Shown in pieces: positions 5,022 to 62,539 of a DNA stretch of 64,000 bases. The notes under the pieces were generated by a model, which saw only the letters and a program-made list of their open reading frames with translations, was not told where the DNA came from and made no database searches. A program made the position numbers and the translations under genes. The stretch spans positions 1 to 64,000 of the forward strand of contig JASFYY010000078.1 of NCBI GenBank assembly GCA_045046875.1, given 5' to 3'. This DNA is from Verrucomicrobiota bacterium. Its GTDB lineage: Bacteria > Verrucomicrobiota > Verrucomicrobiia > Verrucomicrobiales > DEV007. The first letter of the stretch is position 1, and every line of letters begins with the position of its first letter.

Positions 5022-6745
5022 AAACTACCTCCAACCTCTGGCGCGCTTTTGTATTGACGGCTTTATTTCTCTGTGTGACTACATCTGGACCCTCGCGGGA
5101 GGGAGGGTTCACTTTCCAGAAAAACGTGATGATTGCAATGAGCGATGGCACGGAACTGGCGGCTAACCTTTTTCTACCCAAAGAAGGGGAATTATTTCCA
5201 ACCATTTTGATGCGCACGCCTTACGGCAAAGGCAGCAAAACAAACGGACAGGCGAGAGCGTATGTATCAAAAGGTTACGCGGTGATTATCCAAGACTGTC
5301 GCGGACGTGGGGATTCGAAGGGGATATGGGATCCTTTCCGTTATGATGCTGATGATGGTTTTGTGACTCAGGAGTGGGTGGGCAAACAGTCTTGGTCGAA
5401 TGGTAAAATCGGCACCGCGGGCGGATCGTATGTGGGTTGGTCGCAATGGGCTTCCGCGCCCAAAGGAAGTCAATATCTGACCGCCATGGTGCCCCAGGTG
5501 CCTTTCTGTAACGCCTATGACCTGGCTTACGATGGCGGAGCTTTCCAAATATCGTTGTTGATGGGGTGGGGTGCGAATGTTGGAGGAGTGAAATTGGATC
5601 CGGAACAACAGCAGCAAGCTTTTCGCTATTTGCCGCTGAATAAATATGATGATCAGTTCGACAAAGAAGTTTTCTATCTGACGGACTGGATCGATCATCC
5701 GGCATTCGATGATTACTGGGAACAGCGTGGCATTGGTCGTGATGGTTTTGAGAATATCACTGTGCCGATTCTGAACATCGGCGGGTGGTATGATATTTTT
5801 TCCAAAGTAACGCTGGATATGATCAACGGGGTGCGCAAAAAATCGAGCAGTGAAATTGCCCGTCGGAATCAGTTCGCAGTGCTAGGACCGTGGGGACACG
5901 GAGTGGGGGTAAGAAAAGTGGGAGATTTGGATTTTGGTGAAGCGGCGGCTTTGAATATTGGCGAACTACAGTTCAAGTGGTTTGAGCATTGGCTGAAACA
6001 GAAAGACACAGGGATCGAAGATTGGCCGAGGTTTTATCTTTTTGTGATGGGTGAGAATGTCTGGAGGGGCGAAGAAGAGTGGCCGCTGAAGCGCACTCAA
6101 TACACACCTTGGTATCTTCATAGTGGCGGTGATGCCAATGATCCGGATGGCAGTGGGATGTTGAGCCTTGGTAAGTCAGAACTTGGAAAAGTGGATTCTT
6201 TTGTTTACGATCCTGATAATCCTGCGCCGACCATGGGTGGTAATAACTTGGGGGGGGCTCCGATTGGGCCGTATGACCAATCGGAGGTAGAGAAACGTGA
6301 TGATATTCTGGTTTACACCAGCGAGCCATTGAAGCAGGCGGTCGAGGTGACTGGTACAGTGAAGATGATTCTCTACGCCGCTACCAGTGCTAAGGACACC
6401 GACTTCACCGCCAAGCTGGTGGACGTGCATCCGGATGGCAAAGCTTACAACCTTTGTGACGGCATTATCCGAGCCCGCTGGCGGAATTCACGCAGCAAGG
6501 CCGAGTTGGTCGAGCCGGGGGAAATCATCAAATATGAAATCGATTTGTGGGTGACGAGCAATTTGTTTAAAGCGGGACACCAGATCCGAGTCGAAATTTC
6601 CAGCAGCAATTTTCCGCGCTTTGATCGTAATGCAAACAGCGGAGGACCTTTTGGCGCAGACACAAAGTTATTCAAAGCCTCGCAGACGATTCATCACGAT
6701 GCGGAGCACGCGTCACATATTTTGTTGCCAGTCATCCCACGTTGA
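5018..6745 (+). CDS. CocE/NonD family hydrolase (peptidase S15-like)
   Basis: MRTPYGK, QDCRGRGDS, GGSY, GGWYD, GPWGH, SSSNFPRFDRN; ATGA overlap with the upstream gene. Confidence 0.92.
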   Translation: MKTTSNLWRAFVLTALFLCVTTSGPSREGGFTFQKNVMIAMSDGTELAANLFLPKEGELFPTILMRTPYGKGSKTNGQARAYVSKGYAVIIQDCRGRGDSKGIWDPFRYDADDGFVTQEWVGKQSWSNGKIGTAGGSYVGWSQWASAPKGSQYLTAMVPQVPFCNAYDLAYDGGAFQISLLMGWGANVGGVKLDPEQQQQAFRYLPLNKYDDQFDKEVFYLTDWIDHPAFDDYWEQRGIGRDGFENITVPILNIGGWYDIFSKVTLDMINGVRKKSSSEIARRNQFAVLGPWGHGVGVRKVGDLDFGEAAALNIGELQFKWFEHWLKQKDTGIEDWPRFYLFVMGENVWRGEEEWPLKRTQYTPWYLHSGGDANDPDGSGMLSLGKSELGKVDSFVYDPDNPAPTMGGNNLGGAPIGPYDQSEVEKRDDILVYTSEPLKQAVEVTGTVKMILYAATSAKDTDFTAKLVDVHPDGKAYNLCDGIIRARWRNSRSKAELVEPGEIIKYEIDLWVTSNLFKAGHQIRVEISSSNFPRFDRNANSGGPFGADTKLFKASQTIHHDAEHASHILLPVIPR

Positions 6746-51996: not shown

Positions 51997-54081
51997 TCAC
52001 TTTTCAATCACCAGTCCTTTATCAGGATCTGGTCTGGCGATCATCACGCTACCACCCCTTTTATCTCCTTTACCCGATCCACGGGCGATCAGAAATCGGC
52101 CCTTCGAAATTCCGACAATTCCCATCCCGCAATCAAAATCGTAACGACCCTCGAGTTGAAAATTCTTGTCGGTTTTGAGCAATTGTTTTCCATAACAACC
52201 AAACCACCAATGTCCGTCGTGGTAGGCCAGGGTCTGCACTCCGAGTTGGGTGTAACCACTTTTGATCACATGTTGCTCGATGAACTTGAAGTCGGGGGTG
52301 TAGCTGTAGGCGTAATTTTCCGTAATTCCTTCGGGCAATCCTCCAATCACAACAAAAATGCCGTCATGGTAAGCCATGCCGCCCGCGCCGTGAACCACTT
52401 CGGGAACGGGATGTTTCGAGATTAGAGAAAGATCATTCGCATTGTAAACATAAACCCAGGAATCCGCCCTGCCTGCAGGTTTGTTGAAGCTGCCCAGATT
52501 GACTGCCACATAAATTTTGCCGTCGTGATAACACAGATCGCCGTGATGTATAGGCACTTCGATTTTTTTGAGGACATGTCCTTTTGCGTCCGTCTTGACC
52601 AGAGTCGAGGTGAAGGGCCAATAGATCGCGCCGTTTTCATCCGTGCAGATACCTTGCAGGTGATGGCGATAGATTCCTTCGCACTGGATGTTGTCGGGAC
52701 TGTTCGTTTTCTCATAGGCACCGATGTCGTATGCTTTTCCCTGGGGTCGCGTGTTTCCATCAAAATCAGAGTTGGGAGCTTTTTCGGAGGAGCCTCTGTC
52801 GATGGCGGGAGAATCTTTTTGCAGGCGAAAATCCGCCAAGGCGGCATTGACGAATTTGGGATCACCTTTCACCGCATTTCTACCGCGAATCCGGATCTCG
52901 GGTGCAGGGCCAAACAGGTTGTGATCCATGGTCAGGTCTGCATCTTTTAAACTGCCAAGATTGATCGCCGCTCGGCCTTTGCTGGAGAAAATGTTGTTGC
53001 GGATAGTCAAGTTCTTGAAATTTTCTTTAACTTCCGTCATGCGCACTGCCAGTTCGTTGTTGTGAAAGGTGTTGTTGATCAAGCTGATATCTTTTTTCAA
53101 ATGAGTTCCCGGCTTTTCGTAATGATGAATCGAAAACCCGTGGCGGTTGTCATAGATCAGGTTGTTGTAGATTTTGATATTTGTCAGGCTGCCGCCGAGT
53201 TCGGTTGCCAGACTGATGCCACTCTTGGCGTCGTGAATGGTATTCTGGTAAATCTCGATATTTTTTCCTTCAGTGCGGCTGGAGTCGATATAAATACCCA
53301 CTGCAAATTTGGTGTAAAAATCATGTACGTGGTTGTGATGGATTTTCCCATTTGTGCTACCCTCTTTGGCATCGATGCCTTCTTTGTGGATGTGATGAAC
53401 GTGGTTGTTCATGATTTCGAAGCCGTTTACACCACAAAGCGAGATCGCTTCCTGACTGCCACTCATATTGGTCTCAGTGATCTCGTTACCGTCAATGACG
53501 ATGTCAGAAATGCTCCAGCGAGCTTTATTGAACCAGGCATGGACGGCGCTGGAATGGCATTTTTTAAAATGATTTTTTTCAATCGAGATGTGATTGACAT
53601 TGCCTCTGATCTCGATGCCAAAATAGGCAGAGTTGGTGAAGTTCAGTTCAGAAATTTTTATATAGCTGGTGCCATTGATATGAAATAGCCCTGCCCAATT
53701 ATAGGCAATGCCCGCCCCATCGATGGTGGCACGTTCGCCAGGGTAGGAGGTGTAAGTGATATAGGCTCCCGGCTTGCCGGGGTTCTTCGGGAGCACTCGT
53801 TCATTGTAGGAACCTTCTCTGATGAAAACGGTGTCGCCGGCGATCAGGGTGTCGGCGGCGTGCTGGATGCTTTTCCACGGTTTAACTTCTGAACCGGAGG
53901 CGTTGTCATTCCCCTGCGGAGAGACATAATAATCAGCGGCATTTACAAAGCCGATGCTGGTGCTTAGGAAAAGAAGAAGAGTGCAGGGCAGGCGGAGCGC
54001 CCGCCCTACAAAGGCTGTCCATGAGGCAGGGAGGATTGTAGCGCGAGCGCTTCGCTTGCCTCGATTGGGAGTGGGCATCAT
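51997..54081 (-). CDS. Right-handed beta-helix protein fused to a C-terminal propeller-like domain
   Basis: YYVSP.GND..SGS..PWKSIQ.A, repeated I.NN.I units, DP.F..DFRL..SPAID.G..DIGAYE; C-terminal HHLQG..HHGD..HGAGG. Confidence 0.85.
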   Translation of the reverse strand: MMPTPNRGKRSARATILPASWTAFVGRALRLPCTLLLFLSTSIGFVNAADYYVSPQGNDNASGSEVKPWKSIQHAADTLIAGDTVFIREGSYNERVLPKNPGKPGAYITYTSYPGERATIDGAGIAYNWAGLFHINGTSYIKISELNFTNSAYFGIEIRGNVNHISIEKNHFKKCHSSAVHAWFNKARWSISDIVIDGNEITETNMSGSQEAISLCGVNGFEIMNNHVHHIHKEGIDAKEGSTNGKIHHNHVHDFYTKFAVGIYIDSSRTEGKNIEIYQNTIHDAKSGISLATELGGSLTNIKIYNNLIYDNRHGFSIHHYEKPGTHLKKDISLINNTFHNNELAVRMTEVKENFKNLTIRNNIFSSKGRAAINLGSLKDADLTMDHNLFGPAPEIRIRGRNAVKGDPKFVNAALADFRLQKDSPAIDRGSSEKAPNSDFDGNTRPQGKAYDIGAYEKTNSPDNIQCEGIYRHHLQGICTDENGAIYWPFTSTLVKTDAKGHVLKKIEVPIHHGDLCYHDGKIYVAVNLGSFNKPAGRADSWVYVYNANDLSLISKHPVPEVVHGAGGMAYHDGIFVVIGGLPEGITENYAYSYTPDFKFIEQHVIKSGYTQLGVQTLAYHDGHWWFGCYGKQLLKTDKNFQLEGRYDFDCGMGIVGISKGRFLIARGSGKGDKRGGSVMIARPDPDKGLVIEK
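53987..54060. repeat. GTAG-type REP doublet inside the signal-peptide coding region
   Basis: GGCAGGCGGAGCGCCCGCCCTAC-N28-GTAGCGCGAGCGCTTCGCTTGCC. Confidence 0.85.
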
Positions 54082-55637
54082 TTGGATTTTTTCTTTTTTT
54101 TGCGTGGTTTTGATTTAGGAATCACCGGTGGAGTTAGCCCGTCATCAGGCTGATTCCACAAACGATAAGGATCGTTCAAGCGGCGTTGTTCGCTGAGCAG
54201 CAGGGCTTCCATTTCGGCGAGTTTGTCAGCGTAGGCGGGATCTTCGGCGAGGTCGCGTTGGTTCTTTTTGGGAGTGTTGCCAGTGAGTTTGATGGTCGCG
54301 GGATCGTGGTGTTCGGTGAGCAATTCGTTGGGGTTCTCTGCCAGGTTGAAGAGTTGGGTCTCCCGGACGGAACCATCCATGACGTCATATTTGATGAGTT
54401 TCCAATCGCCCTTTTTGACACTGCGCATTCCCGGCTTGGTGCCGCCGCAGTAAACGCCGTAGAGCACGTCGCGAACGATGTCTTTTTTGCCTTCGAGCAC
54501 CGGTTTGAAACTGAGGCCTTCGCTGCTATCAGGTTTGCTCACTCCGGCGAGGTCACAGATCGTGCTGAGCACATCAAGCAGGTAGATGTTGCCTTTGGCG
54601 CGTGATCCCGGAGCGATGCCAGGGCCTTTGACGATGAAAGGGACACGCCAGGTGTGTTCGTAGAGGTTTTGTTTGCCTTGCAAACCGTGACGTCCGATGG
54701 CGATGCCGTGGTCGGAGGTGTAGAAGATGTATGTATTGTCGAGCTCGCCCATTTTTTTGAGTTGCTTGAGAACTCGTCCGATCTGGTTGTCGATGTTTTC
54801 GGCGCAGGCGTACTCGCGACCGAGTTCATTGCGGATGGTGCGTTCGTCGCGATTTTTCCAGACGCCACTGACCGCTACTTCGTCGCGCAGTCCGGGGTGG
54901 CCGTGATGGAAGGGGTGTCCGGGCAGGTAGTTGACTTGCAGGGCGGGCTGTTTGGGGTTGGCGGCTGGCAGCACGTTTTTGTCGGTGTGATTGCTGGCAC
55001 CGTATTTTGCCAGCAACTCGGGTGTGCCGTCGCGGGTGTCGTGCGGGTGGGAGAAGCCGTAGTAGATCAGGAAAGGTTTGCGGTCTTTTTGTTGGGCGCG
55101 ATCACCGAGGTAGTCGATGATTTGTTCGCCGTGCCAGGCGCTGCCGCTTTCCGTGGTGCCGCCACGTTTGGTGGAGTCATTGCGGATGGTGAATTGTTGG
55201 TTGGCGTCTTCGTAAGAGTTGCCGTTTTTGCATGTGCGTACGGTGTCGTATCCAGCACGGTTGAAGACCGCTGCCATGGTATGGTTGGCGAGGTCGGTGG
55301 GAACCAGTTTGGGTTTTTTGACATTCGGGTTGCTGGTGCGGCCGCGTTTGTCGGGGATGTGCCAGACGGATCGACCGGACATGATCATGTGGCGTGACGC
55401 GGTGCAGACAGCGCCCACCCAGGAACCCATTTGATGCGCGCCATCAAAGGTCATGCCTTGTGCGGAGAGCTGGTCGAGGTTGGGGGTGTCGAGCGGAGAT
55501 TTGGGGTCGTAGGCTTTTAGGTCATAGGGGGATTGATCATCGACGAGGATGAACAGAATGTTGGGGCGCTCTGCGGATAGCAGGGTGGAGAGGGATAGTT
55601 GAATTAGAAGGGCGGTGAGCAGTGTGAGGTGTTTCAT
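54078..55637 (-). CDS. Sulfatase (choline-sulfatase-like)
   Basis: PNILFILVDD, CTASR, PHD, SDHG, GKQNLYE; ATG 55637 gives a normal signal peptide. Confidence 0.9.
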   Translation of the reverse strand: MKHLTLLTALLIQLSLSTLLSAERPNILFILVDDQSPYDLKAYDPKSPLDTPNLDQLSAQGMTFDGAHQMGSWVGAVCTASRHMIMSGRSVWHIPDKRGRTSNPNVKKPKLVPTDLANHTMAAVFNRAGYDTVRTCKNGNSYEDANQQFTIRNDSTKRGGTTESGSAWHGEQIIDYLGDRAQQKDRKPFLIYYGFSHPHDTRDGTPELLAKYGASNHTDKNVLPAANPKQPALQVNYLPGHPFHHGHPGLRDEVAVSGVWKNRDERTIRNELGREYACAENIDNQIGRVLKQLKKMGELDNTYIFYTSDHGIAIGRHGLQGKQNLYEHTWRVPFIVKGPGIAPGSRAKGNIYLLDVLSTICDLAGVSKPDSSEGLSFKPVLEGKKDIVRDVLYGVYCGGTKPGMRSVKKGDWKLIKYDVMDGSVRETQLFNLAENPNELLTEHHDPATIKLTGNTPKKNQRDLAEDPAYADKLAEMEALLLSEQRRLNDPYRLWNQPDDGLTPPVIPKSKPRKKKKKSK

Positions 55638-55712
55638 GGTTATAATTGTTATTAAATTGGTGGGTGTGGGGGGTAATGGTTTGGCGCGGGTTGGAGGGTG
55701 GTTCGGGGGATA

Positions 55713-55735
55713 CACGGATTGCCAATCCGTGCTAC
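55713..55735 (-). repeat. Single GTAG-REP
   Basis: Reverse complement GTAG-CACGGATT-GGC-AATCCGTG; same family as 21344 and 24959. Confidence 0.75.
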
Positions 55736-55742
55736 GTGGATT

Positions 55743-57272
55743 TTAGTGACTGCGGCCGTTTTCGATCAAACTGGCGAGTTGTTTTTTTAGGCGTTGTGCA
55801 ACATCCGGGTGCTGCTTGATGACGTTGTGTTTTTCCGCCGGGTCTTTTGATAAATCATAGAGTTGAAATTTTGGCACCGGCGTGTTTTCGAGTTGTTTGG
55901 CGACTTCCAGATTGCGGGTGCGTTTTTTGTCGTGACGTTGTAATTTCCAATTTCCGACAAGGAAGCCGTAATTGCCGGCGTTGCCGTTGTCTTGTTGAAT
56001 GAGCGACTCACGTCCTTTGGCGTCGGCTTGTCCAAGTAAGGCGGGTAATACGTTGAAACTGTCGAGGTAGGCATTGTTAGGTATGGGGGTTTGGGTCAGT
56101 TCAGCGAAGCTGGCAGCGAGATCGATGGTGCAGACCATTTTGTCTGATACTCCGGGTTGGATTTTGCCTTTCCAGCGAGTGATGAAGGGGGTGCGGGTGC
56201 CGCCTTCATAAACACTGTATTTGCCGCCGGAGTAAGGACCGGATGCGCGGTGATCTCCGAGTTTTTCAATCGCAAAATCCTTGTAGCCGTCATCCATCAC
56301 CGGGCCGTTGTCGGAGCAGAAAATCACCAGGGTGTTTTCTGCCAGATTGAGGCGGTCGAGGGTTTTCATCAGCTCGCCGACCCCCCAGTCGAGTTCGACG
56401 ATGGCATCCCCGCGGAAGCCGAGCGGGGTTTTGCCCTGGAACCGTTCGTGCGGCATGCGCGGCACATGCAGGTCGTGTGAGGCGAAGAAGAGGAAGAAGG
56501 GTTGGTTTTTATTGGCTTCGATCCGCTCGACTGATTTCTCGACCCACTTGTCGGTGAGGTCTTCATCGCGGAAACGCGCGGCGTGACCACCGGTGTAAAA
56601 CCCGATGCGGCTGATGCCGTTGTGAATGGTTGAGTTGTGTCCGTGCGACCAGTCCATTTTCAGGGTGTCGCGATGGCTGATACCGGTCGGGTGATCCGGG
56701 CTGGGTTTTTTCTTACCGACCCACAGCGGGTCCTTGGGATCGAGATTGAGAACCCGGTGGTTCTCGACATAAACCTGGGGCACGCGATCGTTGGTGGTGG
56801 GTAGGAGGAAGTTGTAGTCGAAGCCGATTTCGCGTGGTCCGGGTTTGAGCTCACCGTTCCAGTCAGGACCTGCTTTGCCGCCGAGTCCAAGGTGCCATTT
56901 GCCGATCACCGCGGTTTGGTAGCCTGCCTTTTTGAGCAGATCTGGCAAGGTGAAGGTGTCGGGAGGAATGATCAGCGGGCTGTTGGGGGCGGCGATGCCC
57001 TTGCCTTTTTCGCGGAAAGCGTAGGTGCCGGTGAGGAAGGAGAAGCGGGTAGGGGTGCAGGTCGAGGCCGAGCAGTAACCGCTGGTGAAGCGTTGGCCCT
57101 CGGCGGCGAGCCGGTCGATGTTGGGGGTTTTGAGCGCGGTGGCACCGTAGCAGGAAATGTCGCCGTAACCGAGGTCATCGGCCATGATGACGATGATATT
57201 GGGTTTGTCCTGGGCGGAGAGAAAATGGGTGGCAGCAAGAATCAGGCCGCAGATAGTGAGGGATAAACGCAT
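55743..57272 (-). CDS. Arylsulfatase (FGly-dependent sulfatase)
   Basis: PNIIVIMADD, CTPTR, GKWHLG, SDNG, KYSVYEGGTR. Confidence 0.93.
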   Translation of the reverse strand: MRLSLTICGLILAATHFLSAQDKPNIIVIMADDLGYGDISCYGATALKTPNIDRLAAEGQRFTSGYCSASTCTPTRFSFLTGTYAFREKGKGIAAPNSPLIIPPDTFTLPDLLKKAGYQTAVIGKWHLGLGGKAGPDWNGELKPGPREIGFDYNFLLPTTNDRVPQVYVENHRVLNLDPKDPLWVGKKKPSPDHPTGISHRDTLKMDWSHGHNSTIHNGISRIGFYTGGHAARFRDEDLTDKWVEKSVERIEANKNQPFFLFFASHDLHVPRMPHERFQGKTPLGFRGDAIVELDWGVGELMKTLDRLNLAENTLVIFCSDNGPVMDDGYKDFAIEKLGDHRASGPYSGGKYSVYEGGTRTPFITRWKGKIQPGVSDKMVCTIDLAASFAELTQTPIPNNAYLDSFNVLPALLGQADAKGRESLIQQDNGNAGNYGFLVGNWKLQRHDKKRTRNLEVAKQLENTPVPKFQLYDLSKDPAEKHNVIKQHPDVAQRLKKQLASLIENGRSH

Positions 57273-57307
57273 GGTCGCAAAGCTAGCGAAAGGTGAGGGG
57301 AATGCAA

Positions 57308-58036
57308 TTAACGTGATTGCGGAGTGGGGTTTATGTCCCGGCGGCGGCGGAGGAAACCGATGGCTCCGAGCACGGTTACGGCGAGGGCGAGAAAATGGTA
57401 GCCGCTGAAGGGGCCGAGAATACGCGGGGTGGAGCGGATGAATTCGTGGCCGAAGCGGAACAGGCCGTAAGAGATGAGGTAAAGATGGAAGTGTTGGCCG
57501 GGCAGGAGTTGTCGTCGGCGCATGAAGAAGAATATGGCGGCGGCGGTGAGATTGAAAACTAATTCAGCGAGCGGGGCGGGCCAGCGGGGGATTCCAGATT
57601 GGTCGTTTAGAGTGAACCAGGCTGGGCTGCATTTTATCCCCAGGCAGCAGCCGTGTACGAGGCAGCCGATGCGACCGGCGGCGATGCCGAGCGGCACGGC
57701 GCTGGCAAACCAGTCGCCGGTGGGTTTGGCATAACCAGTGATCCATTTGCCGAACTCAACTCCGGCGTATCCGCCGAGCAAAGCGCCGAGGACGGTTTTG
57801 CCGCTGGCGAGGTAAATGAGGAAGTGAGGGTCGCTGCGGTAGAGCCAGCTTTCGGCTGCAAGGTAGCCGATTTTTGCTCCGGCAAAAGCAGCGACGATGC
57901 CGAAGGCGTAGATTTGCATCAGGCGATGGTCATCGCGGAATTTTTTCGACCACCACAGCGCGCCGAGCAGGATGCCGCCGAGCATGATGATGAGGTAAAC
58001 CGGGCTGCCGTTGCTGAGAATCTGGTGCCGGGTCAT
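57308..58036 (-). CDS. Non-canonical prolipoprotein diacylglyceryl transferase (Lgt) paralogue
   Basis: 242 aa, ~7 TM; GAKI, GKTVLGALLGG, D, GRIGC..GCC.G, RWP..LAE, YGLFRFGHEFIR; ATG lies 2 nt after the radical SAM stop. Confidence 0.85.
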   Translation of the reverse strand: MTRHQILSNGSPVYLIIMLGGILLGALWWSKKFRDDHRLMQIYAFGIVAAFAGAKIGYLAAESWLYRSDPHFLIYLASGKTVLGALLGGYAGVEFGKWITGYAKPTGDWFASAVPLGIAAGRIGCLVHGCCLGIKCSPAWFTLNDQSGIPRWPAPLAELVFNLTAAAIFFFMRRRQLLPGQHFHLYLISYGLFRFGHEFIRSTPRILGPFSGYHFLALAVTVLGAIGFLRRRRDINPTPQSR

Positions 58037-58038
58037 TT

Positions 58039-59382
58039 TTAAGCAGAGCTGCAGTCGGAAAATCCAGAATAATAACGGCAGAAGGAATCGAGCTTGCCAT
58101 CCGGCCGGATGACATGAGTGCAGCAGCGGTCGATACGGTCGTCGTCCCAGCTTTGCGCGTCCATGAAGGGTTTGATCAGCAGGCGGAAGGTGTGCGATGC
58201 GGCGAGCTCGAATTGTTTGAGCAGCGCGCCGAGTGGTTCGGAATCGCAGCCGCAATTTTCTAGATCTTCGAGTCGGTAGCGTAGGCGGTCTGAGAGGAAT
58301 CCCTGCACTTCGCTGAAATCAACGAAGTCGCTGATCGAACGGATTTGGCCGTTGATTTTGAGTAAATAACCGATGGTCGCGCAGTTGGGATCACCGCAGG
58401 GCAGGGGAGTGAAGTCGGCGCTTTTGAGTTGTCCTTGCGATTGTTCGATCGCAGAGAGGATAATGTCAGCGACGTTGAGATGAGGCGCTGGCTCTGCGTT
58501 TTCATTGGCAATGCGGCCGCTGCCAAACATGGGTTGAAAGCTGATGCCGCGCACATGAGGGTATTGCAGGCCAAATGAAATGCTGTCCCAGATTTGGTTA
58601 AGGTTATCAGGGATGACCGTCATGGCTAGAGTGACGGGTAGCTTGATTTGCTCGCAGCGCTCGATGGCGAGTTGTTTGATTTTGCGTAAGTCGGCTCCGC
58701 GCAGGGTGTGGTGACCGGTTTCTCCCGGACCGTCGTATTGTAAATAAATCTGCATGTGTCCGCGTTTCACCGCGGTGCCAAGTTGTTGTAAAAAATGGTC
58801 GTCTTTGGCGATTAAGAGGCCGTTGGTATTGATCAGGATGTAATCGATCTTGTCATGAGCGTTAGCCCATTCGAGCAATTCGAAGAACTGCGGGTGTAGA
58901 GTGGGTTCACCGCCGGACAGTTGCAGGATTTCGATGCCGCCTTTGCGTGCGATGACTCCTGAGATGCGGGTTTTGATCTCATCGAGGGGAACGGCATCGA
59001 CCGGACCGGTGAGGGAATCGGCAAAACAAGTGGGGCATTTGAGATTGCATGAATTGACGATTTCGATCAGGGCGACACAGGTGGAGAGGCGTTCGAAGGC
59101 GGCGGTTCCGGCGGAGGAAGGACTGTTGGTTGCGCAGCAGGAGCCGCTGTCGCAGCACTCATCTTTCGTGGCTGGCGAGCCGTGTGATTCCCAATAGAAT
59201 TGGGAATCGGAGCTGAGCAGAGTCCATTGATCACCGTGATCGGGGCAGCTTCGTTTCATGAAAACCTGTGAGGGGGCTGCGCCGGACAACCAGACTTCGG
59301 CTGCGCATGAATCGTGGCATTCGAGGCAACGACTGCGGGTGGATTTGAGTTGCCGGGTGAGCTTGGGTGGGGTGGGTTCCAT
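58039..59382 (-). CDS. Radical SAM enzyme, Tes/GDGT-MAS (MJ0619)-like
   Basis: N-terminal CxxC..CxxHG, CNLKCPTC, SGGEPT, NTNG, YLQYDG, LRG, FQP, DFTPLPC, FMD..RCCTH..PDG..SFC.Y. Confidence 0.85.
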   Translation of the reverse strand: MEPTPPKLTRQLKSTRSRCLECHDSCAAEVWLSGAAPSQVFMKRSCPDHGDQWTLLSSDSQFYWESHGSPATKDECCDSGSCCATNSPSSAGTAAFERLSTCVALIEIVNSCNLKCPTCFADSLTGPVDAVPLDEIKTRISGVIARKGGIEILQLSGGEPTLHPQFFELLEWANAHDKIDYILINTNGLLIAKDDHFLQQLGTAVKRGHMQIYLQYDGPGETGHHTLRGADLRKIKQLAIERCEQIKLPVTLAMTVIPDNLNQIWDSISFGLQYPHVRGISFQPMFGSGRIANENAEPAPHLNVADIILSAIEQSQGQLKSADFTPLPCGDPNCATIGYLLKINGQIRSISDFVDFSEVQGFLSDRLRYRLEDLENCGCDSEPLGALLKQFELAASHTFRLLIKPFMDAQSWDDDRIDRCCTHVIRPDGKLDSFCRYYSGFSDCSSA

Positions 59383-59395
59383 GTGATAAGGGCAA

Positions 59396-59740
59396 TTAAA
59401 AACTACCGATAAGGCATCCGCCTATTCCCAGAGCGAATGCTGTAATAGAGCATAGAATGAAATACGTGAGGCTTCCAGAAACGGCCAATGCCAGAGATGT
59501 CGATGGGTTTATTCGTGAGAGGTGCCAAGAGCATATAGCACCTGCAAACAGTGGGACGAAATATAAGAGTGCATTCATTTTAGTAGAAAATTCTGAATCC
59601 CAGTCCAGCGGTGACAACCATCCTGGCATAAAAAACATCATTAATAGGGCAGGCGTGAATAAACTGCCAAAAAAAATCCAGTAGTTGAAACTCGGTGAGG
59701 ATTTTTTAGTTGGCGGGGGAAGAGGCTGTTCTGAATTCAT
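59396..59740 (-). CDS. Small 3-TM membrane protein ending IGGC-LIGSF
   Basis: 114 aa, three hydrophobic segments, 13 nt upstream of the radical SAM gene; paralogue of 59823-60161. Confidence 0.75.
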   Translation of the reverse strand: MNSEQPLPPPTKKSSPSFNYWIFFGSLFTPALLMMFFMPGWLSPLDWDSEFSTKMNALLYFVPLFAGAICSWHLSRINPSTSLALAVSGSLTYFILCSITAFALGIGGCLIGSF

Positions 59741-59822
59741 GATGGTAGGAGGTCACTTATACGATAGAGACTATCAAACAAACCACTTCAAGGGCAAACG
59801 CAACGGTGTGACATAGCAGGAT

Positions 59823-60161
59823 CTAACTAATAGCTATGATACATCCACCGAAACTGAGAGCCCCTGCTCCTAACGTTGATGCAACAAAAAGTCCAAGTCC
59901 GGTGAAAAATTTCTTTGTGGGAGAAAGGGATTGACGGGAACGCATTAGGATTTCGCAGCAGAAAGCGCCCGCTACTATCGACATCAGAAAGCATAGAAGC
60001 ATTAAATTGAGAGCGACGGTGAGTTGATCGCCTTTCATGAAGAGTTTGAGAATTAAGGTTATTACTCCAGGTGCGAGCATAAACATGAAAAACAGTCGAG
60101 GGCTGTATGGCGGGTTGTTTGGGTTTTTATCAGGTGGCTGAGTAGGGATGTTTGTATCCAT
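59823..60161 (-). CDS. Small 3-TM membrane protein ending FGGC-IIAIS
   Basis: 112 aa; shares the Pro-rich N-terminus, FF...P, AGAxC and terminal GGC-X5 with its neighbour. Confidence 0.75.
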   Translation of the reverse strand: MDTNIPTQPPDKNPNNPPYSPRLFFMFMLAPGVITLILKLFMKGDQLTVALNLMLLCFLMSIVAGAFCCEILMRSRQSLSPTKKFFTGLGLFVASTLGAGALSFGGCIIAIS

Positions 60162-60351
60162 GCAGGGATGCTAACAAAGCGAGGGTGAAAGGGGCAATCG
60201 TTTATCTCGATGGTTTTATCGCTTAGAGTGATGGCCTTGTTTTCTTAATCCGAGAAGAGTTGTTTTTCCTCTTTTCATCTGGAAAAACCCGATTACATAT
60301 ATCGCGCGGCGTAAAAAACAGGCGCGGCGACCATTTTTATCTGTAAATATT

Positions 60352-60777
60352 ATGTCTTTAGAAACCACACTTATCCTTCTCAAACCTGACTGCGTGACCA
60401 AATCTTTGTGCGGAGAGGTGATCAAGCGTTTTGAAGCCGAGGGTTTCAAAATTCGCGGAACGAAGATGATCAAGATGTCCGATGCGTTGTTGAATGAACA
60501 TTACGCGCATATTTCCGACAAACCGTTTTTCCCCAGTGTGGTTGAGTTCATGACTTCGTCGCCAATCATCGCCATGGCTTTGGACGGTGAGGATGTGATC
60601 GGTCGCGTGCGTGATTTGCTCGGGCCGACGGATTCGACCAAAGCGGATGCGGGAACGATTCGCGGTGATCTCGGTGTTGATACCCAGAACAATGTTTGTC
60701 ACGCTTCTGATTCTCAGGAATCGGCTGAAGTTGAGCTGAAGCGCTTTTTTAACGAAGGCGAGCTTTTTTCATACTAA
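60352..60777 (+). CDS. ndk: Nucleoside diphosphate kinase
   Basis: TLILLKPD, HY..H..KPFF, GTIRGD, NVCHASDS. Confidence 0.97.
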   Translation: MSLETTLILLKPDCVTKSLCGEVIKRFEAEGFKIRGTKMIKMSDALLNEHYAHISDKPFFPSVVEFMTSSPIIAMALDGEDVIGRVRDLLGPTDSTKADAGTIRGDLGVDTQNNVCHASDSQESAEVELKRFFNEGELFSY

Positions 60778-60835
60778 GTAATAAGGACCAGCAGGGTTAA
60801 AAGAAGAGCGGGTAATAGGTCCAATAGTGGGAACT

Positions 60836-61459
60836 TTAGCCGCGAACAATCGTGATCAGGAACGGAGCCTTGGCATTATCCGAGGCGGACCGGTGCTGCG
60901 TGACCGTGAACTGATCGCTTTTGAGGGTCTGGCAGAATGTTAGAATCGCGTCAGCTTCCTCAGAGCCTCCGGCATGTCCGATGTAGGCGACGATGGTAAC
61001 GATGCCGTTGGGCAAGAGCAGATCGAGGGCAGATCGCAGGGCTTGGAGGGTGGTTTGGGCTTGAGTGATCACTTGTTTGTCGCCGCCGGGCAGGTAGCCC
61101 AGGTTGAACATCACTGCTTGAATGGGCGTTTGGACCTGGTCAGATATTTTTTCGTGACCGACATGGTGCAAGTGAACCCGATCGAAGTCACGGTCGTGGA
61201 GTTTTTGTTGTGCGGATTGAATGGCTGCGCCTTGAATATCAAAACCATCAACACGGCCTTTTTTACCCACTAATTCGGCGAGGAAAAGGGTGTCATGGCC
61301 ATTGCCCAGCGTCGCGTCCACCACATGGTCGCCTGCCTCTACGTGTTGGCGGATCAGCTGATGCGCCCGCTCTGTGGGGCGCGCAACAAGTTTAATCATA
61401 GGAGGTCTGACCCCATATGATGAGTCGGCTGGCTGGGGATTGGAGTGGGATTCGGGCAT
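60836..61459 (-). CDS. SAM-dependent methyltransferase, YtqB/MnmM-like
   Basis: VDATLGNGHDT, GFDIQ, GHE, FNLGYLPGGDK, Y.GH.GG.EE. Confidence 0.85.
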   Translation of the reverse strand: MPESHSNPQPADSSYGVRPPMIKLVARPTERAHQLIRQHVEAGDHVVDATLGNGHDTLFLAELVGKKGRVDGFDIQGAAIQSAQQKLHDRDFDRVHLHHVGHEKISDQVQTPIQAVMFNLGYLPGGDKQVITQAQTTLQALRSALDLLLPNGIVTIVAYIGHAGGSEEADAILTFCQTLKSDQFTVTQHRSASDNAKAPFLITIVRG

Positions 61460-61471
61460 GGTTTGAGGGGC

Positions 61472-62539
61472 TTAGAAGTTTTTTTGTAGATCGACGGATT
61501 CTTCGATGGGGTGACCGTGGACGAGATGGTTGGCGAGCATGGCGGAGAGAAAGGGGCCGTTGAGTACGCCTTTTGAGCCGAGTCCGTTGAAAAAGGCGAG
61601 GTCTTTTTTGCTTTTGTCGGGATGGCAGCCGAGCAGGGCTTTGCTGTTCTCGATGATGGGGCGCACGGCGGCTTGGTGGTCGGTGATCTTAAAAGGCAAG
61701 TCAGTCATGGCGCGGATTTTGGCGCTGATCTCCTGGCGTCCGGCATCGGTGGCACGATGGTCGAGTTGTTGCCATTCGTAAGTCGAGCCGGAGCGGAATT
61801 TGCCGTTCCCTAGAGGGGCGATGAAGCCTGAGCGGTTGATGATGTGTTTTTCGCTCAGACCCGGGCAGCTGATTTCGAGCACTTCGCCTTTGGCGGGCTT
61901 GAATGGCACCCAGTCAAAGAGCGGGTTGCTCTTTTTGTTCCAGCCTTGGCAGAATACGACTTGTTGGTAGACTCGTTTCTGTTGATCCTGATGCCAGTGC
62001 CAACCGTCGGGGCGCAGTTCGAGGTCTTTGCTATTTAAATCGCCGGATTGGTAATATCCGCGTTCGGTGAATATGCGCCGAGATGCTTGCAGGAATTGGC
62101 TGACGTCGAGGTAGCCACCTTTCATCACAAAACCTCCGAAGCTGGCTTTGAGTTGGGAGGGATCAGCGAGGCTGGTTTGCAAAACATAATCAGCGAAGTC
62201 GGGTTCGCTCATGCGGTGGTTAAATTCGTCCTGCTCTTGTTTGTTTTTGAATAAACGTTGGATGGGCTTTTCGAAAAACAGAGAGCTAGAGGTTTTATTT
62301 TCAATCCAGCGATAGAGTTCTAGTGCGGCAGGAAAAAAGTCGTCCAAGCGCCAGGTTTTGACCATGCGCATACCGGTGATTGGGGTGACGATGCCGCCGG
62401 CGACTTTTGAAGAGGTCAGTCTTTCTTCGCGGTCGACGATTTGCATACTTTGACCGAGGCGGTCCAGTTGCCATGCCAGCAGGGTGCCCGCCAGTCCCTG
62501 GCCGACGATTAAAATGGGCGCTGGTTTGGACGAGGTCAT
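61472..62539 (-). CDS. FAD-dependent oxidoreductase (DAO/glycine-oxidase, MnmC-oxidase-like)
   Basis: IVGQGLAG, SSKVAGG, KGE, GSTYE, AVRP, NGLGSKG. Confidence 0.85.
   Translation of the reverse strand: MTSSKPAPILIVGQGLAGTLLAWQLDRLGQSMQIVDREERLTSSKVAGGIVTPITGMRMVKTWRLDDFFPAALELYRWIENKTSSSLFFEKPIQRLFKNKQEQDEFNHRMSEPDFADYVLQTSLADPSQLKASFGGFVMKGGYLDVSQFLQASRRIFTERGYYQSGDLNSKDLELRPDGWHWHQDQQKRVYQQVVFCQGWNKKSNPLFDWVPFKPAKGEVLEISCPGLSEKHIINRSGFIAPLGNGKFRSGSTYEWQQLDHRATDAGRQEISAKIRAMTDLPFKITDHQAAVRPIIENSKALLGCHPDKSKKDLAFFNGLGSKGVLNGPFLSAMLANHLVHGHPIEESVDLQKNF

Follow-up and report, generated by a model that had tools for sequence, protein, structure and literature searches.

A Verrucomicrobiota gene cassette joining a Tes-like radical SAM enzyme, a divergent Lgt paralogue and small membrane proteins with a near-C-terminal cysteine: a putative lipid-modification system

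Analysis of a 64,000 nt stretch of a Verrucomicrobiota genome (contig JASFYY010000078.1; hereafter the window) identified a compact accessory cassette that encodes two small membrane proteins with a conserved cysteine close to the C-terminus, a radical SAM enzyme resembling Tes/GDGT-MAS and a divergent paralogue of Lgt. From the sequence comparisons described below we propose, at roughly even confidence, that this is a self-contained cassette for the putative lipid modification of small membrane proteins, in which the Lgt paralogue would lipidate the cysteine and the radical SAM enzyme would remodel the lipid tails.

The cassette (57308-60161) consists of four co-directional minus-strand ORFs in the order small1 (59823..60161; 112 aa, ending ...SFGGCIIAIS), small2 (59396..59740; 114 aa, ending ...GIGGCLIGSF), the radical SAM gene (58039..59382; 447 aa) and the Lgt-like gene (57308..58036; 242 aa). 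The intergenic gaps are 82, 13 and 2 nt and the genes point away from ndk (60352-60777, plus strand), an arrangement that an earlier note on this DNA had described and that the ORF coordinates matched. The length of the Lgt-like protein was counted from an ATG at 58034-58036; a TTG-extended reading of 315 aa overlaps the radical SAM gene and is unlikely. small1 and ndk diverge from an intergenic region (60162..60351) that is presumed, by its position, to hold the cassette promoter; a consensus scan of this region found no sigma-70-like site, and a promoter and terminator scan returned no more sites than were present in shuffled sequence. Ten sequencing runs with the locus are listed, with RNA on record for none of them.

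A survey of gene neighbourhoods, which the earlier note had put forward as one check of its proposal, showed that genes of the three types are co-inherited. The radical SAM gene was found in 10 of 40 near relatives, and in all ten the Lgt paralogue adjoins it downstream. A search of genome_contigs for the radical SAM enzyme produced 496 confirmed matches, and the Lgt paralogue lies beside it in 73 of 80 loci from this collection; five of the seven remaining loci stop at a contig edge and two are true absences (2/75 loci with downstream room). When the test was reversed and started from the Lgt paralogue, 43 metagenome loci offered 600 nt or more of upstream sequence, and 38 of these contained the radical SAM gene. 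Small membrane proteins, numbering one to four per cassette, were detected in 8 of the 10 relatives (none by the criteria used in L028 and L031) and, by HMM or motif, in 67 of 79 loci, with 12/79 showing none by the criteria used. Within the operon zone of these 79 loci, 77 of the 715 ORFs on the same strand have a C-terminal [small]-G-C motif, compared with 12 of 4227 ORFs elsewhere in the loci, so that small G-C-tail proteins are enriched approximately 40-fold in the operon zone, which is more than chance. No further conserved neighbour gene was found around the cassette loci. A 400-genome phylum-wide sample, which seems poor in carrying lineages, contained no radical SAM orthologue above 230 bits besides the window's own, and more distant Tes-like genes of the phylum were found next to Lgt-like ones in 4 of 7 genomes.

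The locus of a congener (L212) was compared with window positions 55000-61500 by blastn. The flanks are 92.7% and 97.1% identical, the 2912-bp segment that carries the cassette (57323..60234) is swapped for 431 bp, and a radical SAM orthologue is absent throughout the congener assembly; the cassette is a clean indel that is gained or lost as one unit. A search for terminal repeats returned a single cassette-spanning pair, a 14-nt inverted repeat (57392-57405/60324-60337) that does not lie at the indel junctions and was judged to be due to chance. Two candidates for a fusion of the radical SAM enzyme with Lgt (P0271 and P0285) emerged from a search for longer proteins. Inspected by eye, P0271 departs from the radical SAM frame at about residue 330 and from there follows the same alternative frame by which the Lgt ORF of the window is lengthened upstream; it was therefore taken for a frameshift artefact rather than a fusion.

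The Lgt-like protein matches Pfam LGT (PF01790) with 88 bits over residues 14-228 (cut-off 24.9) and falls under the cut-offs of TIGR00544 (41.1 bits, cut-off 118.9) and of NF000778, its best NCBIfam Lgt model (73.6 bits, cut-off 334). A second, canonical Lgt (212 bits) is encoded on another contig of the same genome, so the cassette copy is a paralogue; LspA and Lnt are also encoded in the genome. The Pfam match, the divergence and the separate canonical enzyme upheld its earlier identification as an atypical Lgt paralogue. When aligned with E. coli Lgt (5AZB) and with the canonical Lgt of the same genome, the paralogue proved to keep equivalents of E. coli Y26, R143, G154, Y235, R239, E243 and R246, and it bears the signature G-R122-I-G-C125-x3-G-C130-C131-x-G133. 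Six residues of the E. coli enzyme are reported to be absolutely required (Y26, H103, R143, N146, G154 and R239; PMC13251419, in the part available), of which the paralogue has four (Y14, R122, G133 and R194), H103 being replaced by Leu and N146 by Cys125; a further substitution relative to E. coli replaces E151 with Cys. N146C and E151C are both known in distant natural Lgts (same part of PMC13251419). The paralogue is also headless, as approximately 30 residues of canonical Lgt that form the periplasmic head domain are missing in 11/11 paralogues. It departs from the canonical pathway, for which a separate set is encoded elsewhere in the genome, in being paired with a radical SAM gene.

The radical SAM enzyme contains Pfam Radical_SAM and Zn_ribbon_HMPTM domains. 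Its best-scoring NCBIfam model is TrsS (NF045646; 234.9 bits over residues 14-438, below the cut-off of 490), and it also matches Tes (NF045702; 168.7 bits, below the cut-off of 450). TrsS, which appears as a radical SAM (seleno)protein in a table of the review PMC13188914, is often a selenoprotein, whereas the cassette ORF is open with no in-frame TGA. Using phmmer, residues 12-335 and 393-438 were aligned to the solved GDGT-MAS structure 7TOL (E 1.7e-37), and a Foldseek search with a predicted model (pLDDT 65.7) placed 7TOL/7TOM at the top (E 5e-22, TM 0.69 over 485 columns), the next match being SkfB with a TM of 0.37. The earlier identification of a Tes-like radical SAM enzyme was thus sustained by Pfam, NCBIfam, sequence and predicted fold. 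The likeness to Tes/GDGT-MAS (MJ0619) is full-length and includes an N-terminal ribbon CX2C...CX2H (C19, C22, C46, H49), an N-terminal Cys-rich stretch (C76, C77, C82, C83), a CX3CX2C motif (C112-X3-C116-X2-C119) and a Cys-rich C-terminal domain with invariant C329, C334, C377, C379, C420, C421 and C435; the ribbon residues and the three cysteines of the CX3CX2C motif are invariant in 11 radical SAM orthologues. A rubredoxin-type CX2C...CX2H and CX3CX2C are described as features of GDGT-MAS (PMC9433317, part available). The cassette enzyme differs from GDGT-MAS by its extra invariant LPCGDPNC and CGC motifs, its bacterial host and its Lgt paralogue partner. In the HMMER alignment the labile Met439 of the GDGT-MAS [4Fe-4S]C site stands opposite Lys404 and Cys438 has no partner because of a gap, in a region that is modelled with low confidence, so the coupling chemistry may differ from that of GDGT-MAS. 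No SPASM or RRE-type match was found in the enzyme with Pfam or NCBIfam. Cultured Pedosphaera parvula encodes a radical SAM protein (P0084) that is 60% identical to it. Another radical SAM enzyme, Mss (Thermotoga), has been proposed to couple bacterial fatty-acid tails; according to the available part of PMC13159169 it is no Tes homologue, and it is described there without Lgt or small-protein partners.

The two small proteins are mutual paralogues (27% identity, E 3e-9). According to hydropathy and loop charges, small1 has a Pro-rich polar N-terminus and three hydrophobic helices with a basic loop ahead of the last; it terminates in F-G-G-C107 followed by IIAIS (Cys codon 59841-59843), and small2, also a 3-TM protein, in I-G-G-C109 followed by LIGSF (Cys codon 59414-59416). 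No Pfam or NCBIfam family matched small1 above cut-off, and a search of the protein atlas with small2 returned only clusters named 'hypothetical protein' (0.89-0.92). A match of small1 to NF058595 'invert_tail' (lipo-invert putative C-terminal anchoring domain) was rejected as noise, since it scored 15.1 bits against a cut-off of 37; the best score genome-wide was 22 bits, and sub-threshold matches were present in 14/14 control genomes too. No literature on 'lipo-invert' was found. The bodies of the small proteins evolve fast, with 25-27% identity where the enzymes retain 78-83% and with no blastn match. The claim that these are small membrane proteins with a conserved terminal cysteine held: Cys109 is the sole invariant column in an alignment of 58 sequences, and among the best 150 relatives from an unselected library profile search 148 have a Cys 3-16 residues from the end, preceded by G in 141 of the 148. 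Of the 58 aligned proteins, 55 have G directly before the Cys (-1); G, A, F, L or V occupies -2, and at -3 there is F in 30 proteins and one of L, V and I in 14. The common pattern is a basic loop, a last helix, [F/L]-x-G-C and a tail of 5-15 residues. Some relatives, single-TM forms among them, carry N-terminal zinc ribbons, and certain endings of the tail, such as ...N-[FLM]-[HR], recur within subgroups.

With its basic loop, hydrophobic helix and G-C, the last helix and GGC of the small proteins does look like a lipoprotein signal peptide relocated to the C-terminus. The cassette would in this respect parallel Lgt-LspA-Lnt maturation (E. coli Lgt 5AZB/5AZC), where an Lgt-family enzyme acts on substrates in which a basic segment leads into a hydrophobic helix and a small residue stands directly before the Cys. 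In bacterial prolipoproteins the cysteine stands behind an N-terminal signal peptide, whereas here it is residue 107 of 112 or 109 of 114, 5-15 residues from the C-terminus across the family, in a carrier that is polytopic or zinc-ribbon-anchored. The active site of Lgt-type enzymes is at the periplasmic face. Under the proposal, the last helix would insert N-in/C-out in the manner of a lipoprotein signal peptide, leaving the invariant cysteine at the periplasmic face, and the Lgt paralogue would move a glyceride-type lipid from a phospholipid to its thiol. The radical SAM enzyme, predicted to be cytoplasmic, would abstract hydrogen at the end of a lipid tail as in Tes and then couple C to C, working on the donor lipid ahead of its transfer or, alternatively, on lipid that is already attached to the protein; the product may be a macrocyclic or membrane-spanning lipid that requires its own transferase. 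The short tail could be processed later, either before the cysteine by LspA to give a lipopeptide or after it in a CaaX-like manner. Several observations weigh against the proposal. A cytoplasmic radical SAM enzyme and a predicted periplasmic cysteine would call for lipid flipping or for action at the mid-plane; two of the six required E. coli Lgt residues (H103 and N146) have no equivalent in the paralogue, which is also without the head domain; and the mostly Phe -3 position is unlike the L/V/I of canonical lipoboxes, [LVI][ASTVI][GAS]C (PMC12462473, part available). The Lys404 pairing in the radical SAM enzyme also counts against it, as do the few relatives and loci noted above in which no small protein or no Lgt paralogue was found.

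It is possible, though rather unlikely, that the pathway concerns lipids only, the Tes-like and Lgt-like enzymes making a modified (tail-coupled, membrane-spanning or macrocyclic) lipid and the small proteins serving as scaffolds or transient thiol carriers. GDGT-MAS, which is closest to the cassette enzyme in both structure and sequence, has free lipids as its substrates (PMC9433317, part available), and it has been proposed that bacterial homologues of Tes produce membrane-spanning lipids (PMC8941075, part available). Other Tes-like genes of the phylum (L124, L126 and L127) belong to clusters that resemble a fatty-acid synthase and contain ACP, ketosynthase and reductases, and pairwise coupling of tethered lipids would fit the fact that cassettes often have at least two small paralogues. 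However, all that is invariant in the small proteins is a lipobox-like G-C by a signal-peptide-like helix, as in an Lgt substrate, scaffolds normally conserve more than one residue, and the protease and hydrolase accessories found in relatives suggest protein processing. That the genes have no joint function, with the Lgt-like gene a second housekeeping copy among unrelated neighbours, we consider very improbable: second Lgt copies do occur elsewhere, such as M. smegmatis MSMEG_5408 with N146C (PMC13251419, in the part available), but the linkage is reciprocal across the surveyed loci and the genes come and go as one unit.

The accessories found in relatives bear on the fate of the tail. Among relatives of the Lgt paralogue, some form a fusion protein with an Rce1-like CAAX protease or a beta-lactamase-fold hydrolase, and in others a gene for an ICMT/PEMT-type methyltransferase is next downstream; the window's own cassette has neither protease nor methyltransferase. 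These enzymes of the relatives suggest a cut after the cysteine. In the version raised in the earlier note, the paralogue would lipidate the cysteine and LspA would cut before it, freeing a RiPP-like lipo-peptide of 6-16 residues whose peptide or lipid the radical SAM enzyme may modify. Gly at -1 is acceptable to SPase II, LspA and Lnt are encoded in the genome, the bodies evolve as fast as leaders would and the tail endings are common within subgroups, all of which fit a released peptide. Yet the radical SAM enzyme gives no SPASM or RRE-type match and its nearest relatives bind lipids, three-helix or zinc-ribbon leaders would be unusual for a discarded peptide, and the Rce1-like and ICMT-like accessories point the other way; we regard this version as improbable, and the putative lipo-hexapeptide released by SPase II has no more in its favour than a cut on the other side of the cysteine.

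Eukaryotic CaaX processing comprises prenylation of a cysteine, cleavage by Rce1 and methylation by ICMT. The cassette and its relatives share with it a lipid target at a cysteine near the C-terminus and accessories of the Rce1-like, ICMT and PEMT families, by analogy only, and differ from it in an Lgt-type transferase in place of a prenyltransferase and a tail of 5-15 residues rather than 3. A speculative and rather doubtful extension of the lipid-modification proposal would be a second, CaaX-like bacterial lipidation, in which the Lgt paralogue lipidates the near-C-terminal cysteine, the Tes-like enzyme welds the tails of that lipid, before or after its attachment, into a macrocyclic or membrane-spanning form, and some lineages then clip the short peptide tail with an Rce1-like enzyme or serine hydrolase and methylate the exposed end with an ICMT-like one.

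A literature search found no published description of an Lgt paralogue together with a Tes-like radical SAM enzyme and Cys-tail proteins, nor any work joining tetraether lipid synthase with a diacylglyceryl transferase, or Lgt with radical SAM and a lipobox. The role of hundreds of bacterial Tes homologues has been an open question since 2022; Zeng et al. listed 456 of them and proposed brGDGT synthesis, which was untested there (PMC8941075, part available). In the cassette such a homologue is linked with a transferase and with putative acceptor proteins that have one invariant cysteine, which brings the question within reach of direct experiment, namely whether the mass of the 112-aa protein shifts in a Cys-dependent manner. 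If the proposal is correct, the small proteins would form a new class of bacterial lipoprotein, with a C-terminal lipobox on polytopic mini-proteins, and Tes-type C-C coupling would have a new use; if the CaaX-like reading were also true, many 'bacterial Tes homologues' would make protein-linked rather than free lipids.

The cassette comprises four minus-strand ORFs, whose translations were re-checked: small1 (59823-60161, 112 aa), small2 (59396-59740, 114 aa), a radical SAM protein (58039-59382, 447 aa) and an Lgt-like protein (57308-58036, 242 aa from the ATG at 58034-58036), separated in that order by gaps of 82, 13 and 2 nt. It is divergent from ndk (60352-60777), and 35 nt separate the Lgt-like stop from the start of a sulfatase gene. 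The two small proteins are paralogues on pairwise comparison (27% identity, E 3e-9) and end in …SFGGCIIAIS (small1) and …GIGGCLIGSF (small2), that is, in G-G-C plus five residues. The earlier note had described this layout, and the re-check agreed with it in every detail of order, gaps and GGC-X5 ends. G+C content is 0.43-0.46 in the small-protein genes (59396-60161) versus 0.53-0.61 in both enzyme genes (57308-59382). In the flank (51997-57272) lie two sulfatase-like genes (54078-55715 and 55743-57272), and 51997-54081 encodes a secreted protein of 694 aa whose repeats are parallel beta-helix-like; congeners keep all three, with or without the cassette.

The radical SAM protein matches Pfam Radical_SAM and carries an HMPTM-type N-terminal zinc ribbon. 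Among NCBIfam models, TrsS scores highest at 235 bits (cut-off 490), followed by Tes at 169 bits (cut-off 450), neither reaching its threshold, and its closest solved relative is M. jannaschii GDGT-MAS (7TOL), matched over nearly the full length at E 1.7e-37. An AlphaFold2 model built from 11 orthologues (pLDDT 65.7, pTM 0.71) retrieved 7TOL/7TOM in a structure search (E 5e-22, TM 0.69, 485 columns), with all other structures far behind (SkfB at E 1e-8, TM 0.37). Invariant in the 11 orthologues are C19, C22, C46 and H49, a rubredoxin-type CX2C…CX2H motif, and C112, C116 and C119 (CX3CX2C), both motifs being described for GDGT-MAS in the text of PMC9433317. In the sequence alignment, the labile Met439 of the GDGT-MAS [4Fe-4S]C site pairs with Lys404 and Cys438 stands opposite a gap, so that this site probably differs; the invariant motifs LPCGDPNC and CGC are peculiar to the window's clade. 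Because of the similarity to 7TOL and the shared motifs on one side, and the sub-cut-off scores and the clade's own motifs on the other, the protein is, as judged from its sequence, of GDGT-MAS build yet outside the curated Tes family.

With 88 bits, the Lgt-like protein passes Pfam LGT but none of the NCBIfam Lgt equivalogs; a canonical Lgt (212 bits) is encoded on another contig of the same genome, which also encodes LspA and Lnt. Aligned to E. coli Lgt and to the canonical copy of the same genome, the paralogue retains the equivalents of Y26, R143, G154, Y235, R239, E243 and R246, has H103 replaced by Leu and both N146 and E151 by Cys (signature GRxGCxxxGCCxG), and is without the periplasmic head domain. 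Six residues of E. coli Lgt (Y26, H103, R143, N146, G154 and R239) are listed as strictly essential in a 2026 study (PMC13251419), which also reports N146C and E151C/D in distant natural Lgts; since these replacements occur naturally, the paralogue would belong to a clade of its own and not be an inactive enzyme. Both enzyme identities proposed earlier, a Tes-like radical SAM protein and an atypical Lgt, therefore hold, the former below the curated Tes cut-off.

An orthologue of the radical SAM gene (at least 540 bits) was present in 10 of 40 near relatives: one of five congeners, seven of the 19 remaining genomes from the family and two of 16 from the order. In all ten the Lgt paralogue adjoins it on the same strand, once with a small gene in between and once after a gap of about 650 nt. 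An orthologue-alignment scan with one genome per species confirmed 496 relatives of the radical SAM protein; among the best 80 loci, whose titles are nearly all Verrucomicrobiota, the Lgt paralogue was found in 73. In five of the other seven the sequence stops no more than about 650 nt beyond the radical SAM gene, and two (L055 and L072) are truly without the paralogue. Reciprocally, a search of metagenome contigs started from the Lgt paralogue gave 446 relatives, and among the best 80 loci the radical SAM gene was present in 38 of the 43 with at least 600 nt upstream; L195 is a clear exception, with no radical SAM gene despite 4.9 kb upstream. When all ORFs of 80 loci were clustered, no other conserved real neighbour gene emerged, the leftover clusters being shadow frames. 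The linkage that the earlier proposal called for is thus conserved across genomes.

One or two small membrane proteins are encoded directly upstream in eight of the ten carrying near relatives, none was found in the loci L028 and L031, and at least one was recognised by HMM or motif in 67 of 79 loci. The motif (a hydrophobic stretch, [GASTV][GAST]C and a C-terminal remainder of 3-16 residues) alone matched 77 of 715 same-strand operon-zone ORFs of 50-220 aa versus 12 of 4227 elsewhere in the same loci. A looser form matched eight of 22,869 ORFs of at least 60 aa in the window's whole genome, small2 included, only ORFs of up to 250 aa being tested. The last Cys lies 3-16 residues from the end in 62 of 64 HMM hits. 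An alignment that joins small1 and small2 to 11 sequences from relatives and 45 HMM hits (58 in all, each preselected for having the Cys) has a mean column identity of 17%, with Cys109 as the only invariant column, partly through that selection, and G at -1 in 55. An unselected profile search of 1.84 billion cluster representatives yielded 1065 proteins at E ≤1e-3 and 277 at E ≤1e-10; the Cys stands 3-16 residues from the end in 148 of the best 150, the other two ending early in the profile, so that the terminal Cys is conserved, as proposed. Of those 148, 141 have G at -1, and tails are most often 10 residues long. The small proteins fall in no Pfam or NCBIfam family; only zinc-ribbon models match, in at most five of the 58. 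In L027, a 61-aa mini-ORF between the two small-protein genes (oriented 5262-5447) encodes one hydrophobic helix, ends …LARGCSGSI and is possibly an additional Cys-tail protein of smaller size.

A typical small protein has a Pro-rich polar N-terminus, two helices, a Lys/Arg-rich loop, a third helix, [F/L]-x-G-C and a tail of mostly small or hydrophobic residues. Some relatives carry an N-terminal CPxC…CPxC zinc ribbon, and one subclass consists of zinc ribbon, single helix, [F/Y]-A-[G/A]-C and tail. Because the zinc ribbons and the positive-inside rule both argue for a cytoplasmic N-terminus and basic loop, the Cys is predicted to lie at the outer face. With the basic loop inside, then a helix, then the Cys outside, the last helix would resemble a lipoprotein signal peptide (n-region, h-region, lipobox) with a "mature protein" of only 5-15 residues. 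The active site of E. coli Lgt is placed on the outer face of the membrane in PMC4728403; the predicted sites of the Lgt paralogue and the radical SAM protein face opposite sides.

Farther afield, only seven of 400 evenly sampled genomes of the phylum had a Tes-like gene (E ≤1e-40), all distant (145-230 bits). An Lgt-like gene adjoins four, with a PEMT/ICMT-family methyltransferase in between in two, and behind one of the four pairs lies the gene for a 103-aa protein that ends in …LGVC and seven further residues; these Lgt-like proteins keep GRIGC and lack H103 and the head domain. The remaining three Tes-like genes lie within fatty-acid-synthase-like clusters. Two of these loci, L126 (1-12837) and L127 (1-12677), come from different genomes and hold two Tes-like genes and a third radical SAM gene, accompanied by ketosynthases, short-chain reductases, an ACP-like protein, a PEMT/ICMT-family membrane protein and a nitroreductase-like gene; they look like lipid-tail modification clusters without an Lgt-like gene.

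A library search gave 15 longer relatives of the Lgt paralogue, of which six were run against Pfam (two beta-lactamase, the Rce1-like, the amidohydrolase and both radical SAM ones). The extra domain is a beta-lactamase-fold serine hydrolase in 11, an Rce1-like CAAX-type protease in one and an amidohydrolase in one (P0272-P0283, including P0276, and P0284), and a radical SAM domain in two. The fusion P0272 has one more hydrophobic segment after the Lgt part, so its hydrolase domain would lie outside the cell membrane. P0285 is an apparent radical SAM-Lgt fusion; the other, P0271 (693 aa), exits the radical SAM frame near residue 330 and is probably a frameshift read-through, continuing in an alternative frame that also lengthens the window's Lgt ORF upstream (57308-58255, 315 aa). 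Among 170 loci, the Lgt paralogue is followed by a separate beta-lactamase-fold gene in 11 (L120, L129-L133, L143, L164, L166, L167 and L204) and by an ICMT/PEMT-like gene in five (L064, L078, L105, L206 and L207). The window's own cassette has no protease, hydrolase or methyltransferase accessory of these kinds.

In a cassette-free congener, flanks matching window 55000-57322 (92.7%) and 60235-61500 (97.1%) enclose, in place of 57323-60234, a stretch of 431 bp whose membrane ORF of 138 aa is unrelated. A second congener likewise has no cassette, and no radical SAM gene of this kind was found elsewhere in either assembly. A membrane protein of 126-138 aa with a Pro-rich N-terminus adjoins ndk in congeners (L212 6594-7010, L004 289-669), at the cassette's place in the cassette-free one, and has no counterpart in the window. 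The sole cassette-bearing congener has it at this very position, and its sulfatase, Lgt and radical SAM genes share 77% nucleotide identity with the window; blastn found no match there for the small-protein stretch 59373-60263. At the protein level, identity is 83% for the radical SAM protein, 78% for the Lgt paralogue (81% over 232 BLAST-aligned residues) and 25-27% for the small proteins. Given its absence from two congeners and the greater divergence of the small proteins, the cassette is an accessory unit within which the small proteins evolve fastest.

Bacterial Tes homologues number 456, of untested function, in the account of Zeng et al. (PMC8941075), and bacterial homologues occur in organisms making no biphytanyl chains, as stated by Lloyd et al. 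(PMC9433317). The terms "lipoprotein" and "Lgt" are both absent, by term search, from a review published in 2026 on radical SAM enzymes that modify lipids (PMC13459092), and full-text search found no publication pairing the two enzyme families or describing the motif, although subscription-only papers or supplements could hold one.

The radical SAM protein, the Lgt paralogue and the small proteins clearly act jointly, and it is very improbable that the cassette genes share no function. A pathway acting on lipids only, in which the small proteins would serve as carriers or scaffolds, seems unlikely. Less likely still is the RiPP-like lipopeptide route of the earlier note, with its lipo-hexapeptide product. 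The tail may be cut on either side of the Cys, with neither direction favoured: Gly at -1 and the LspA of the genome would permit the lipopeptide, and the Rce1-like, hydrolase and ICMT-like accessories of relatives point to CaaX-like cleavage behind the Cys. Because the three parts work together and the feature preserved in the small proteins is what an Lgt-type enzyme recognises, we favour, at about even chances, a reading in which the Lgt paralogue would transfer lipid onto their invariant Cys and the Tes-like enzyme would remodel the lipid tails, either before or after that transfer.
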